A stretch of DNA of 64,000 nt, from positions 28,830,001-28,894,000 of the forward strand of contig CM022671.1 of assembly GCA_012295275.1 (NCBI GenBank), given 5' to 3'. The notes under the pieces are model-generated. The model saw only the letters and a list, made by a program, of their open reading frames with translations, was not told where the DNA came from and made no database searches. Each line of letters begins with the position of its first letter. The stretch's first letter is position 1. Below, piece after piece: positions 17,541 to 63,582 of this stretch. The position numbers and the translations under genes were made by a program. Source of the stretch: Chrysomallon squamiferum. Taxonomy: Eukaryota; Animalia; Mollusca.

Positions 17541-17550
17541 TATATATAAA
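17541..17550 (+). promoter_or_regulatory. TATA box of gene A
   Basis: TATATATAAA in a locally CpG-richer segment, about 100 nt upstream of a consensus donor ctttg|gtaagt at 17650/17651. Confidence 0.55.
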
Positions 17551-17574
17551 GGAAAACGCGGAGATAATGTGTAC

Positions 17575-17650
17575 TAACAGGATTTGCATCTTCGAAAACG
17601 ATATTCTTTTTGAGACTTGAAGTTTTCAGCGCCTTTTTCTATCAGCTTTG
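17575..17650 (+). other. Putative non-coding exon 1 of gene A (start approximate)
   Basis: Lies between the TATA box and a consensus GTAAGT donor; the next acceptor is ttcttttcag| at 18624. Confidence 0.5.
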
Positions 17651-18632
17651 GTAAGTAAATTTAATGTTACAAAAAATAATTAGAGGCTAAATTTTATCAA
17701 GACTTAACATGACTTTAGTATATTCCACGTATTATTATTATATATTTGTTTTTGATTATTTTTTTTGTTTTTCATTATTTTTAACATTTTGGCAATGTTA
17801 CTTCACTGGCAATTTTACTTCACTGGCACTTCTACTAACGTCAGAGCAACCTATCAGAAAAAGGTTTTATTTAAAAACAATAGCAGAACACAGTGATTAG
17901 ATTTTTAGTTTTCGACGGCTGATGCAAGTCACACAAATGCTCTTTCTCACTTAACAGCAGCAAGGAACATTTTCTATGCGCAAACAAGACAGTATATACC
18001 ATTCTTTACTGTCAGCCGTTGAAGGAAACTGTTTGGGAAACGATACGAAAGGACATTCTGAAGTGAATTCAACAGCGTGATTCCTCATTCTAATTCACAC
18101 CTTGACAAACGGCGATAAAAATATAATATTGCATCATACCTTGTTAACCATCAAAGTTCCCGTATTTTATTATATATGCGAAACTCAAACTAAAGACGTA
18201 TTATTTTGTTTTATGTAGAAGTCATTTATTTATTTATTTTCAAGAATTTCATTTTTTTTTTTTTTTTTTTTCTTTTTTAACAGTTCTTTTGTTAATGACT
18301 AGCTTTGGCAATCTGCTGTCAGTTTTATGAGGTGGTAGTCTCGGAAATATCGAGAAATTAATGAATATTTCTCTTATTACTTTTATAAAACGAAGGATGT
18401 AGTTTTAATATATTTAAATGCCTTAGAGAATATATTCAAAACTTAACATTTATTTAAATTCACTACAGAATCTATAAACTATTACAAAGCATTTGTATAA
18501 TAAAAAAAAAAAAAAATATGTTCTAATTACCTTACAAAATAATATATATTTTTTAAATTTAAATCTTGCAATATAAATATGTTTATCACAATTTTTAACA
18601 TGATGTTGTTCTTCTTCTTTTCAGACATCAAC

Positions 18633-18705
18633 ATGATAGCATCAAATCTGCTGTTGACCGTTTTACTTGTCATTTTCATCTCCCATCTCTCGGCGTATGT
18701 CATTG
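18633..18705 (+). CDS. Gene A signal-peptide exon (MIASNLLLTVLLVIFISHLSA-YVI)
   Basis: Acceptor 8 nt before the ATG, hydrophobic core, small-residue cleavage site and phase-1 donor G|gtgagt. Missed by the ORF track. Confidence 0.85.
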
Positions 18706-59209: not shown

Positions 59210-62200
59210 CTGCAGAGGCTGTGTTTGATACACCATGCTGCTGGGTTCCTGACTTATTTGCCTGGATGACAGTTTGAGAGGTAGGCGCTTTATGAGCAGC
59301 TATTCTGTACATCACTGGAGGAGAGTGGTAAACGCCCCCAGCTCTGTAAGGATAATCATAGTTAACCTTTCCGTAATCTCCTTGAACGAAAATATACTGG
59401 TTTCCAGGCCAGAGCCCATTGTACGGATTGCCGTAAGCAGCACCTCCAGCACCTGCACCTGCACCTGCACCTGCACCTGCTCCTGAACCACCACCTGCAG
59501 CACCGGCCCCAGCACCGTGTCCTGCTCCACCCAGACCCGGTCCTGTACCAGCACCAGCTCCAGCTCCTGCACCAGCGTCGATTCCAATCAGAATAGGACC
59601 TCCAGCTCCTGCACCTGCTCCTACACCTGCTCCTGCTCCAGCACCTGCCCCTGAACCCGCTCCTGCACCTGCACCTGCTCCTGCTCCAGCTCCTGGAGGT
59701 CCGACAAGGTAAACAGGAGATCCGGCACCTCCTGGAGTAGGTCCTACAAGAAATATAGGACCACTCATACCTGGTCCTCCAGGACCTCCAGCGCCTGCCC
59801 CACCTGCACCAGCGCCTGCCCCACCTGAACCAGCCACCTCCTACACCGATTCCTGGACCTGCAGCACCTGGACCAACACCAGCTCCAGGACCTGCACCTG
59901 CACCACCTCCCATGCCTATTCCAGGCCCACTGGCACCTATTCCAAGACCTGGACCTCCAGCACCTGCACCACCCGTTCCTATACCGCCTCCTGGACTAGG
60001 TCCTACAAGAAGTATAGGACCACCGATACCTGATGCTCCTGGACCACCAATTACATATCCAGGACCTGAACCAGCTGAACCACCACTGCCAGCCGGAACA
60101 CCTATAACCGGTGCCGTTCCAAAACCAGGCCCTCCCATTCCTGCTCCTGGACCAGTAGCGCCAGTTCCTATCACAGTTCCAGGACCCCAAGTTCCTGATC
60201 CAGCAGCCCCTGACCCTACGCTTATAACAGGAAGAGCTCCAACACCAGGTTGTCCGATTCCAACACCTGCTCCAGCAGCACCTGCACCTGTCCCAGTTCC
60301 AGGACCCCAAGCTCCTGAACCAGCAGCCCCTGACCCTACGCTTATAACAGGAAGAGCTCCAACACCAGGTTGTCCGATTCCAACACCAGCTCCAGCAGCA
60401 CCTGCACCTGTTCCAGTTCCAGGACCCCAAACTCCCGAACCAGCAGTCCCGGCCCCAACACTTATAACAGGAAGAACTCTAATTCCAGGTCTTCCAATTC
60501 CAGCACCAGCACCAGGAGCACCTGCACCTACTCCAGTTCCAGGACCCCAGGCTCCTGAACCAGCAGTCCCAGGTCCTACACTTACTAACAGGAACACCTC
60601 TAACTCCAGGTCTACCCATTCCAACACCAGCTCCAGAAGCACCTGCACCTACTCCAGTTCCAGGACCCCAGCCTCCAGCTCCAGGTCTTCCTGCACTTGG
60701 ACGAACTCTACTTGGTCCCATGCCGACAAAACGGATAAGTTCATAACCTGGACCTCCGATAGATATTGAACCTGGACCCATTCCACGTACAATTAATAAT
60801 GGACCAGGTCCTGCACCAAGTCCTGGGACACCTGCTCCCGCACCGCCTGCTCCAGCTCCTACACCATATCCAGGTCCTCCTGCTCCCGCCCCACCTGCTC
60901 CAGCTCCTCCTGCACCAAATCCATGACCTCCTGGACCAAATCCTGGACCACCTGCTCCCGCCCCACCTGTTCCAGGTCCTGCACCAAATCCTGGACCAAA
61001 TCCTGCTCCACGATGTCCAGGACCTCCTGCTCCTGCACCAAATCCAGGTCCTCCTGGACCAAATCCGTGACCACCTGCTCCTGCTCCACCTCCTGCACCA
61101 TGTCCTGCTCCTGCCCCAGCTGCTCCAGGTCCTGCACCAAATCCAGGTCCACCTGGACCAAATCCATGACCACCTGCTCCAGCTCCGCCTGCTGCACCTC
61201 CTACACCATGTCCAGGACCTCCTGTTCCAGGTCCTGCACCAAATCCAGGTCCTCCTGGACCAAATCCATGACCACCTGCTCCAGGTCCTGCACCAAATCC
61301 AGGTCCTCCTGGACCAAATCCGTGACCACCTGCTCCCGCTCCGCCTGCTCCAGGTCCTGCACCATGTCCAGGACCTCCTGCTCCAGGTCCTGCACCAAAT
61401 CCAGGTCCTCCTGGACCAAATCCATGACCACCTGCTCCCGCTCCGCCTGCTCCAGCTCCGACACCATGTCCAGGTCCTGCACCAAATCCAGGTCCTCCTG
61501 GACCATGTCCAGGACCTCCTGACCAAGTCCTGGACCTCCAGGTCCTCCTGCTCCAGGTCCTGCACCATGTCCTGGGACCTCCTGCTCCAGGTCCTGACCA
61601 ACCAAATCCACCTGCTCCCTCCTGGACCATGTCCAGGGACCACCTGCTCCAGGTCCTGCTCCATGCCAGGACCTCCTGCTCCAGGACACCATGTCCAGGA
61701 CCTCCTGTTCCAGGTCCTGCACCAAATCCAGGTCCTCCTGGACCAAATCCATGACCGCCTGTTCCTGCTCTCCTCCTGCACTCCAGGTCCTCCTGGACCA
61801 ATGTCCATGGACCTCCTGCTCCGCCTGTCCAGGTCCGACACCATGTCCAGGGACCTCCTGCTCCAGGTCCTCCTGGACCAAATCCATGACCACGACCTCC
61901 TGCTCCAGCTCCGACACCATGTCCAGGACCTCCTGCTCCAGGTCCTACACCATGTCCAGGACCTCCTGCTCCAGGTCCTGCACCAAATCCAGGTCCTCCT
62001 GGACCAAATCCATGACCGCCTGTTCCTGCTCCACCTCCTGCACCAAATCCAGGTCCTCCTGGACCAAATCCATGACCACCTGCTCCCGCTCCGCCTGCTC
62101 CAGCTCCGACACCATGTCCAGGACCTCCTGCTCCAGGTCCTCCTGGACCATCTCCTGCCCGCCTGCTCCAGTCCGACACCATGTCCAGGACCTCCTGCTC

Positions 62201-62562
62201 CAGGTCCTGCACCATGTCCAGGACCTCCTGCTCCAGGTCCTGCACCAAATCCAGGTCCTCCTGGACCAAATCCGTGACCACCTGCTCCCGCTCCGCCTGC
62301 TGCAGCTCCGACCCCATGTCCAGGACCTCCTGCTCCAGGTCCTGCACCAAATCCATGTCCTCCTGGACCAAATCCGTAACCTCCTGCTCCCGCTCCCGCT
62401 GCTCCTGCACCATGTCCAGGACCTCCTGCCCCAGCCCTGCTGCTTTACGACCATTTGCTCCTACTACTGTATTTATGGTGATACTCGATCCACCCATTCT
62501 CATCATGATATTGCCGCCTCTATACATATCAACCATTGAAGTTTGAGCATTTGCAAATGGAA
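59210..62562 (-). CDS. Gene F main exon; Gly/Pro/Ala/His-rich repetitive structural protein (about 1115 codons) with multiple indels
   Basis: Acceptor ttttttcccacag|tt and donor gcag|gtgaat. The Gly-rich reading passes between ORFs 60479-62536, 61201-61920, 59362-60648 and 59121-59837. Repeats include GHGFGPGGPGFGAGPGAGG and (GA)n. Confidence 0.85.
60170..60680 (-). repeat. Coding tandem repeat, period 120 nt (40 aa: WGPGTGTGAGAAGAGVGIGQPGVGALPVISVGSGAAGSGA), about 4 copies
   Basis: aggacccca starts at 60181, 60301, 60421, 60541 and 60662. Confidence 0.9.
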
Positions 62563-63498
62563 CTGTGGGAAAAAAAAAATTATCTTGGCGTTATTCACAT
62601 TATTTTTTATTACAATACTGCATTTGAAAAATGTCCGGTTCATGACACACTAACGTTAACCACTAGAGCTATTTTGAAAATTAGCAAATTAAAAAACAGT
62701 GATTGATAAAATCACGTTATATTGTGGAAAAACGAAGATCTATATTCACTAAAATAACCAATGTCCAGATATATGAAAATATGAAATTCGATAAAATTAA
62801 TATTTATTTATTTAATTTATTTATTATTTAATTTATTTATTCATTTATTCATTCATTTATTTTATTTATTTTTGTTCAATTTGCTAAAATTATGAGTACT
62901 TCAGGTGATATAATTGGATGATTGGATTGATGTACGGACAGATAAAACAATAGCAAAGAAGCAACAATGATGTTTTTTGTTTTGCATGCTGGGTGTGTTC
63001 GAGCGCGCACGCGCATTTGTAAGTGTATAAACAGATTTACTTGCATGTATATAAAAAAAATTATTATTATTATTATTATTATTATTATTATTATTATTAT
63101 TATTATTATTATCATCATCATCCTAATAGTAATGATAATAGTAGTAGTAGTAGTAGTAGTAGTAGTAGTAGTAGTAGTAAATGTATTAGTAGTATAAGTA
63201 GGTATAGTAAGAAAAATAAGTAGCAGCAGTAGCAGTAGCAGAGATAGTAGTAGTAGAAATAACAGTAGGAGTAGTAGTAATAGTAGTGGTAGTAGTGGTA
63301 GTAGTAGTAGTAGCAGTAGTAGAAAAAGTGTTGTTGTTAGTACTTTTAATTTTGATATTGATTCTTCTGTTGCATTCTTTTATGTTAAAAAAAAAAAATG
63401 TTTTAAATCTAGCAGTAAAAACGTATATTCTGGTATTTTGACTGTTTTAAGTATTAACTACAACATATGCCAAAAAGTAATGACAATGAATTAGTTAC

Positions 63499-63582
63499 CT
63501 TGATTTAGCTGAGGAAAGCGTCCGTAGATGCAGGCAATAGTGGTGCATCGTGTTCTAAAGAAAGGAAACCTGACTGGAAGAC
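63499..63582 (-). CDS. Gene F candidate short internal exon (GLPVRFPFFRTRCTTIACIYGRFPQLNQ)
   Basis: Open phase 1-1 exon with donor caag|gtaact and acceptor at 63582 (aag) or 63573 (cag). It is a GC-richer island and shares LPVR and YG..Q with the short exon of gene C. The signal exon would then lie beyond the window. Confidence 0.5.

Follow-up and report, generated by a model that had tools for sequence, protein, structure and literature searches.

We analysed a 64,000-nucleotide stretch of the genome of Chrysomallon squamiferum, the scaly-foot snail (GCA_012295275.1, contig CM022671.1, positions 28,830,001 to 28,894,000; hereafter the window, with coordinates counted from its first letter), which contains a cluster of adjacent units, A, B and C on the + strand and D, E and F on the − strand. 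The cluster probably encodes shell-matrix proteins secreted by the mantle, and A to D would be tandem duplicates whose low-complexity bodies have drifted too far apart to be aligned, the C-terminal tail being what they still have in common. Taken by themselves, D/E and F quite probably have a shell-matrix role. Half of the cluster is already listed as novel mantle genes; the new part is apparently the tail family, which is shared with a protein of abalone nacre.

The window DNA is that of an animal and is rich in A+T and in microsatellites. Long, biased open frames lie where a previous reading of the letters alone (the sequence-only reading) had placed them, and the cluster of adjacent units it described is real, A, B, C (+) and D (−) being found by sequence at the proposed sites. 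That reading had also proposed a single paralogous family from A to F. This does not hold, as the tail is present in A, B and D, weakly in C and not in E or F, and the bodies are unalignable.

The C-terminal tail shared by genes A to D

A, B, C and D can be aligned over their final ~40 residues, C weakly, and in all four adjacent genes the tail runs to the stop codon; only two glycines are invariant. Significance was estimated by comparing alignment scores with those of 5000 shuffles, both pairwise and with profiles from which the gene in question and its orthologue had been left out. In the pairwise comparisons, the score was reached by no shuffle for A-B and A-D, by 59 for B-C, 140 for A-C, 302 for C-D and 1301 for B-D; against the Haliotis tail described below the counts were 0 for D and 1 for B. 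The left-out profiles gave 0 for A, D and Haliotis, 8 for B and 36 for C, with scores of 40 bits for the Haliotis protein P0008, 15.6 for D, 7.0 for C and 6.1 for B. When run against 1132 window segments, the full tail profile matches A, B, C and D only, and the tail is absent from E and F; E compared with each of A to D is equalled by at least 985 of the 5000 shuffles. With five profiles each lacking one group, just two other segments of the 1132 scored, at E 2.7–3.5. Outside the tail, the bodies of A to D are mutually unalignable and show no alignment to the abalone body either; among 36 pairs the only clear one is A with its orthologue from Gigantopelta. The orthologue of B, P0013, is 57% identical to it in the last 74 residues and conserves mainly the tail plus one short block, which suggests that selection acts on the tail.

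The tails of the four window genes were combined into a profile, which was compared with 1.84 billion proteins. Eight hits were obtained at E≤0.001, and the top five carry the tail: two orthologues of A, an orthologue of B (P0007) and the abalone-type P0008 and P0009, the named ones belonging to Gigantopelta and Haliotis. The repeat proteins P0010, P0011 and P0012 were dropped, having at most 15 bits per domain, and loci L001 and L002 were rejected, L001 holding an unrelated DG-repeat protein. This protein (L001 437–2299) has 620 residues, in which many short DG-turn repeats stand in tandem ahead of a charged region. The ENA contigs that hold P0006, an orthologue of A, and P0007 are both 42,233 bases long; taking these contigs as one, A and B would be linked in a relative as well. 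A word-index search with the tail profile returned only A orthologues among 3882 candidates, and an ESM Atlas search with the tail of A gave no usable match.

The sequence-only reading recognised no catalytic domain, and none of 12 scanned window segments reaches a Pfam cut-off. No chitin-binding family is listed for these segments or for the ten members of the tail alignment, a remote relation being still possible. A Pfam match to FKBP26_IF was rejected because its 19.9 bits stay below the cut-off of 27, as were sequence matches of the tail profile in the PDB, which are summed weak repeats in designed propellers. Searches of full texts with tail peptides and accessions, and searches by topic, found no description of the tail in the literature within their reach, most subscription papers lying outside it. 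The tail family therefore appears to be undescribed. As far as the searches reach, the earlier label of undescribed genes suits this family and A to C; it does not suit D/E and F, which the consulted part of the scaly-foot snail genome paper already lists as novel, mantle-enriched genes (PMC7142155).

AlphaFold2, run on ten sequences, predicts the tail of A as a four-stranded beta-meander, with four consecutive strands in the best model (pLDDT 71.7, pTM 0.49; the other four models, 49–57). With this model, Foldseek found no match at E≤0.001, only generic small beta-sheets; the best VIA-align hit had Z 4.7 and an rmsd of 2.7 over 45 residues, none of 48161 chains reaching Z≥5. Prediction of a two-copy complex of the tail scored 0.00, did not use the alignment and gave no answer.

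Mantle enrichment, abalone nacre and the weighing of alternatives

The genome paper includes, in the supplements consulted, gene models named CsqKR_Scaf175_2.x (PMC7142155), and D/E and F match models 2.28 to 2.30 residue for residue. A repeat unit of 2.30 matches F, and all seven tested positions of its repeats fall in the window frame with a uniform shift of 58 residues, a wrong-frame stretch included. Both repeats of 2.29 land exactly on the 3′ part of F. The repeat at residues 748–758 of 2.28 lands on E provided that the main exon of D is cut at 42758, the sole in-phase GT among 41 positions checked. From these positions it follows that 2.30 and 2.29 are F split at frame breaks, and that 2.28 connects D with E by way of a weak donor; this join is probably a way for gene prediction to sidestep the frame break of D. 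Mantle enrichment in the same source is 9.2-fold for 2.28, 49-fold for 2.29 and 37-fold for 2.30. The next gene, 2.31, which is Gly-rich and lies beyond the window, is enriched 85-fold, and none of the 15 source-data rows for Scaf175_2.x genes is enriched in scale or gill. Models 2.28 to 2.33 are all listed there as novel genes of chr7. The cluster thus continues past the window end with 2.31 to 2.33, the last one being a long Q-rich repeat protein.

The tail-bearing protein P0008 is LOC124131975 of Haliotis rufescens, and H. cracherodii and H. rubra have corresponding proteins. In the consulted data of a shell proteome of H. laevigata (PMC6003135), peptides of protein idb_54301 match P0008/P0015, one of them inside the tail. 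There, idb_54301 counts as accepted in each of the six nacre fractions, with 2–7 peptides and 0.009–0.653% of intensity-based absolute quantification (iBAQ%), and occurs at a lower level in prismatic insoluble fractions; it is named 'uncharacterized' in the supplementary tables and does not appear in the main text. It has the tail in common with A to D, and its chain is short and basic with a hydrophobic N-terminus; its body cannot be aligned with that of A. One tail gene was found per Haliotis species, versus four in the snail cluster.

Several observations weigh against a common role in the shell. Nacre contains the abalone protein as a minor constituent, and A aligns with it in the tail only, the body score being reached by 47 of 100 shuffles. 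The RNA contigs of A stem from runs labelled metatranscriptomic, with no tissue assigned. Among the published Scaf175_2.x rows seen, none corresponds to A, B or C, which seem to be missing from the published annotation; as 2.28 mixes D with E and leaves out the tail of D, a clean tissue value is available for none of the genes with the tail. No peptide of these proteins could be tied to the shell proteome of the snail (Wong et al. 2025, PMC11871041), whose examined part uses other gene identifiers and holds no sequences. With A to C apparently unannotated, D fused to E and F split in two, shell proteomes searched with such models could miss them. As for the tail itself, only one of the five models for A exceeds pLDDT 60; the tail of C is marginal, its model (pLDDT 50.5, strands at like positions) not being usable; and DG-turn repeats of unrelated proteins score up to 15 bits on the tail profile, which equals or exceeds the scores of left-out B, C and D.

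Shell proteomes pick up minor bystander proteins too, and two unrelated groups might simply be neighbors here, D/E and F coding for mantle shell proteins and A to C for mucus, epithelial-coat or host-defence proteins of other tissues. The basic composition of C (25% K+R), the opposite strand of A to C relative to D to F, their absence from the mantle-enriched list in the part consulted and the finding of A in three metatranscriptomic-labelled runs are in line with this. Nevertheless, D and A share the tail beyond any of 5000 shuffles, the abalone homologue makes up to 0.65% of a soluble nacre fraction with seven peptides, and A to C are seemingly unannotated rather than measured and found flat. 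We thus regard this arrangement as unlikely. It is less likely still that the tails of A to D are partly convergent, built from chance DG-turn strands, A alone being related by descent to the abalone protein and the cluster being a set of independent new genes. The weak pairs (B-D, C-D and A-C), the two invariant glycines, the unalignable bodies and the similar DG turns of the L001 repeat protein would fit such an origin. It would leave unexplained the strong pairs A-B, A-D, D-Haliotis and B-Haliotis, a motif that closes at the stop codon in four adjacent genes, left-one-group-out profiles that score just two other window segments, the phase-1 architecture common to all four and the B orthologue that keeps mainly the tail.

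Frame breaks, one in D and about 15 in F as judged from the letters, might also mean that both genes are decaying pseudogenes. This is very improbable: the two halves of F are expressed at high and near-equal levels (means 1495 and 1485) in the consulted part of PMC7142155, its breaks gather in the stretch with the most repeats, and losses (8) and gains (7) are in balance, as expected of long-read assembly errors, and past its break near 42270 D remains open for 347 codons, up to an intact tail. Shell-matrix proteins of the mantle, with A to D related through the tail, hence remain the favored reading. Of the proposed tandem duplication, the part concerning A to D is supported by the tail (for C weakly), as is by its own sequence the derivation of E from D, 17 of 34 residues near the exon start being identical; F is left out of it. 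The idea that the proteins are co-secreted parts of one material finds support for D/E and F, through their published mantle enrichment, and indirectly for A, through the abalone tail homologue in nacre. This material is most likely shell matrix or periostracum, which are preferred to the beak, sucker-ring, byssus or egg-case materials also considered by the sequence-only reading.

Gene structures and surroundings of the cluster

In exon models built from coordinates, every coding intron lies in phase 1 and is bounded by AG/GT. As had been proposed, each of A to D has a separate hydrophobic N-terminal exon closing at a phase-1 GT donor, and a short phase 1-1 exon is seen in the sequence of C, D and F. 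Signal peptides were predicted from hydrophobicity alone, and a scan for hydrophobic phase-1 start exons recovers those of A to D. Such ATG-to-GT stretches also occur many times by chance in the repeats of this microsatellite-rich DNA, and the splice sites of B to F consequently rest on sequence and homology instead of reads. The expected single large low-complexity exon per gene is found, open and compositionally biased, except that B has two. The bodies differ in composition, the bias of A being only mild (S10 G9 P8 Q8 N8 T7 R7 Y7 %). Contigs from sequencing runs were placed on window 17400–34100 only, X1, X2 and X3 coming from RNA-labelled runs of one study and X4 from DNA.

Gene A (+) starts with a non-coding exon (17583..17650) behind a TATA-like box near 17543, followed by an exon with the ATG (18633), the predicted signal peptide and a phase-1 donor (18625..18705), and by the main exon (19952..20358), whose last ~42 codons are the tail; this main exon is backed by the exon model, the orthologue, RNA contigs and the tail profile. 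Splice signals also delimit a possible optional phase 1-1 mini-exon of 48 nt (19280..19327), so the product would have 159 or 175 residues. Contigs X1 and X3, from two of the three RNA-labelled runs, connect 17583–17646, 18620–18704 and 19951–20558, which confirms both introns of A as first proposed, with the mini-exon skipped; X2 covers the main exon only. Three bases are missing at 19975 in X1, X3 and X4, and X4 has one additional base at 17648. When the main exon was searched, five of eight candidates were hits, namely four isoforms of Gigantopelta aegis LOC121368135 (49–56% identity) and P0006. The Gigantopelta gene, an orthologue 56% identical across 90% of the main exon, has isoforms with optional 15-residue inserts at the position of the possible mini-exon; it is uncharacterised, and searches of the accessible literature returned no published function. 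An initial idea of a cephalopod beak protein was dropped upon finding this match.

Gene B (+) comprises a predicted phase-1 signal-peptide exon (26013..26067), recovered by the hydrophobicity scan, a first large, R/S-rich phase 1-1 exon of 546 nt (27026..27571) and an S/L/R/N-rich last exon of 1385 nt (27988..29372) which closes with the tail, as seen in the exon model, the tail profile and the orthologue P0013. The model predicts 661 residues, and the X4 DNA contig covers 26994–29448, the first large exon included, without gaps. A possible non-coding first exon lies at 25270–25378 (+), with a GTGAGT donor at its end. Gene C (+) has a predicted signal-peptide exon (33421..33499) behind a TATA-like box near 33369, an 87-nt phase 1-1 mini-exon (33950..34036) and the K+R-rich main exon (34921..35393), closing with a divergent copy of the tail detected by the profile; its modelled product is 212 residues long. 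B and C have no RNA contig in X1 to X3, from which nothing is inferred, as contigs show presence and not absence.

Gene D (−) comprises a predicted phase-1 signal-peptide exon (46448..46499), also recovered by the scan, a 48-nt phase 1-1 mini-exon (45122..45169) and a Q-rich main exon of ~1100 codons (41222..44515) that contains the single frame break and closes with the tail, giving a product of ~1130 residues. A probable non-coding first exon of D/E (about 49864..49935, −) follows a TATA-like box. E (−) is a Q/N/S/M-rich, tail-less last exon of 1361 nt with a phase-1 acceptor (38284..39644), and the scan found no signal-peptide exon of its own between the stop of D and this acceptor. Judging by the sequence, D probably uses E as an alternative last exon, which may have arisen as a duplicated start of the D exon. 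A TATA-like site at 39863 (−), 220 bases ahead of the acceptor, might give E its own start, without a signal peptide.

Gene F (−) has a phase 1-1 mini-exon (63499..63582), the main exon of 3353 nt and ~1117 codons (59210..62562) which corresponds to 2.30 plus 2.29, and a 39-nt phase 1-1 exon 3′ of it (58855..58893). The main exon (G44 A16 P11 H3 F3 %) bears His/Phe-containing repeats in its first half. The scan found no signal-peptide exon of F inside the window; the published 2.30 has 58 extra N-terminal residues, and this exon is likely located past the window end. A candidate last exon (57300–57602, −) has a good acceptor; in one frame its spaced cysteines are interrupted by stops and another frame closes after a few codons, leaving the predicted C-terminus uncertain.

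At the other end of the window, an exon with an AG acceptor (392..573, +) is similar to the terminal part of the TIR domain of SARM1 and would be the last coding exon of that gene; its first 27 residues match TIR-1/SARM1 chains weakly (best E 0.0014). The origin of the cluster next to SARM1, as first suggested, is thus retained only in that a SARM1-like exon adjoins it, a neighbor 17 kb off and linked by position alone. The window also contains a minisatellite at 7154–7892 (63-base period, 11.8 copies) and another at about 55900–57300, an array of ~29-base AC-rich units.

Proposed roles and comparison with known systems

The signal peptides would have the proteins exported from the mantle epithelium, and disordered bodies would form a gel-like organic matrix instead of nucleating calcium carbonate. 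The main exons of A to E contain no Cys and 4–7.5% Asp+Glu; basic, Cys-free and acid-poor bodies point to matrix or gel formers and not to calcium nucleators, in agreement with roles proposed for repetitive shell proteins in the consulted part of PMC4897951. Modelled as a small beta-meander, the tail might dock each protein into the matrix. E, as an alternative last exon, would yield a form of D without tail, and F would be a silk-like Gly/Ala/Pro/His protein of the framework, distinct from the others and expressed together with them from this locus. A bolder proposal, which we consider rather doubtful, is that the tail forms a folded domain, so far undescribed, that targets proteins to the matrix and predates the split of vent peltospirids and abalones, a common plug for freely evolving Q-, R- or S-rich bodies, and that the four-gene expansion and the D/E exon switch which drops the plug help to build the thick organic shell layer of this snail.

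As the repeats of shell-matrix proteins cannot be matched up between species, these proteins usually count as orphans. The conserved tail makes it possible to follow one of their families between abalone nacre and a vent snail whose shell is unusual, and indicates that proteins of quite different composition can be paralogues. Being a small domain, it is also amenable to expression and to binding tests on chitin, aragonite and other matrix proteins. The annotation is corrected as well, with the apparently missing A to C added, D unfused from E and F made one gene.

Among known systems, F recalls the histidine-rich proteins of squid beak by its Gly/Ala/His/Phe repeats and four GHGxxG matches in window frames, and departs from them in having 3% His and 11% Pro and in belonging to a gastropod mantle; neither of two pentapeptide units of the squid proteins occurs in it. 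Shematrins and KRMPs of pearl oysters are, as is predicted for the present proteins, secreted, basic, low-complexity mantle families with a C-terminal family signature, and F is Gly-rich as they are. Here, by contrast, the tail has ~40 residues and is predicted to fold, and F carries GGH/GFG/GPG repeats. Five published variants of the RKKKY-type signature had no match in six frames beyond 17500, the last exon of F being uncertain, and G(2-3)Y arrays are represented in F by a single match (Tyr 1.3%). The closest resemblance is to repetitive low-complexity domain (RLCD) shell-matrix proteins, which are predicted to be secreted, biased or repetitive, mantle-enriched, lineage-restricted and devoid of a catalytic domain (PMC4897951 and PMC7142155, parts consulted); about 30% of shell proteins bear such repeats (PMC4897951). 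Low-complexity bodies without a catalytic domain are present here, A and B being just mildly biased, and mantle enrichment is documented for D/E and F by the published values. What sets this cluster apart from the RLCD proteins is that paralogues of unrelated composition are united by a ~40-residue tail traceable to abalone.

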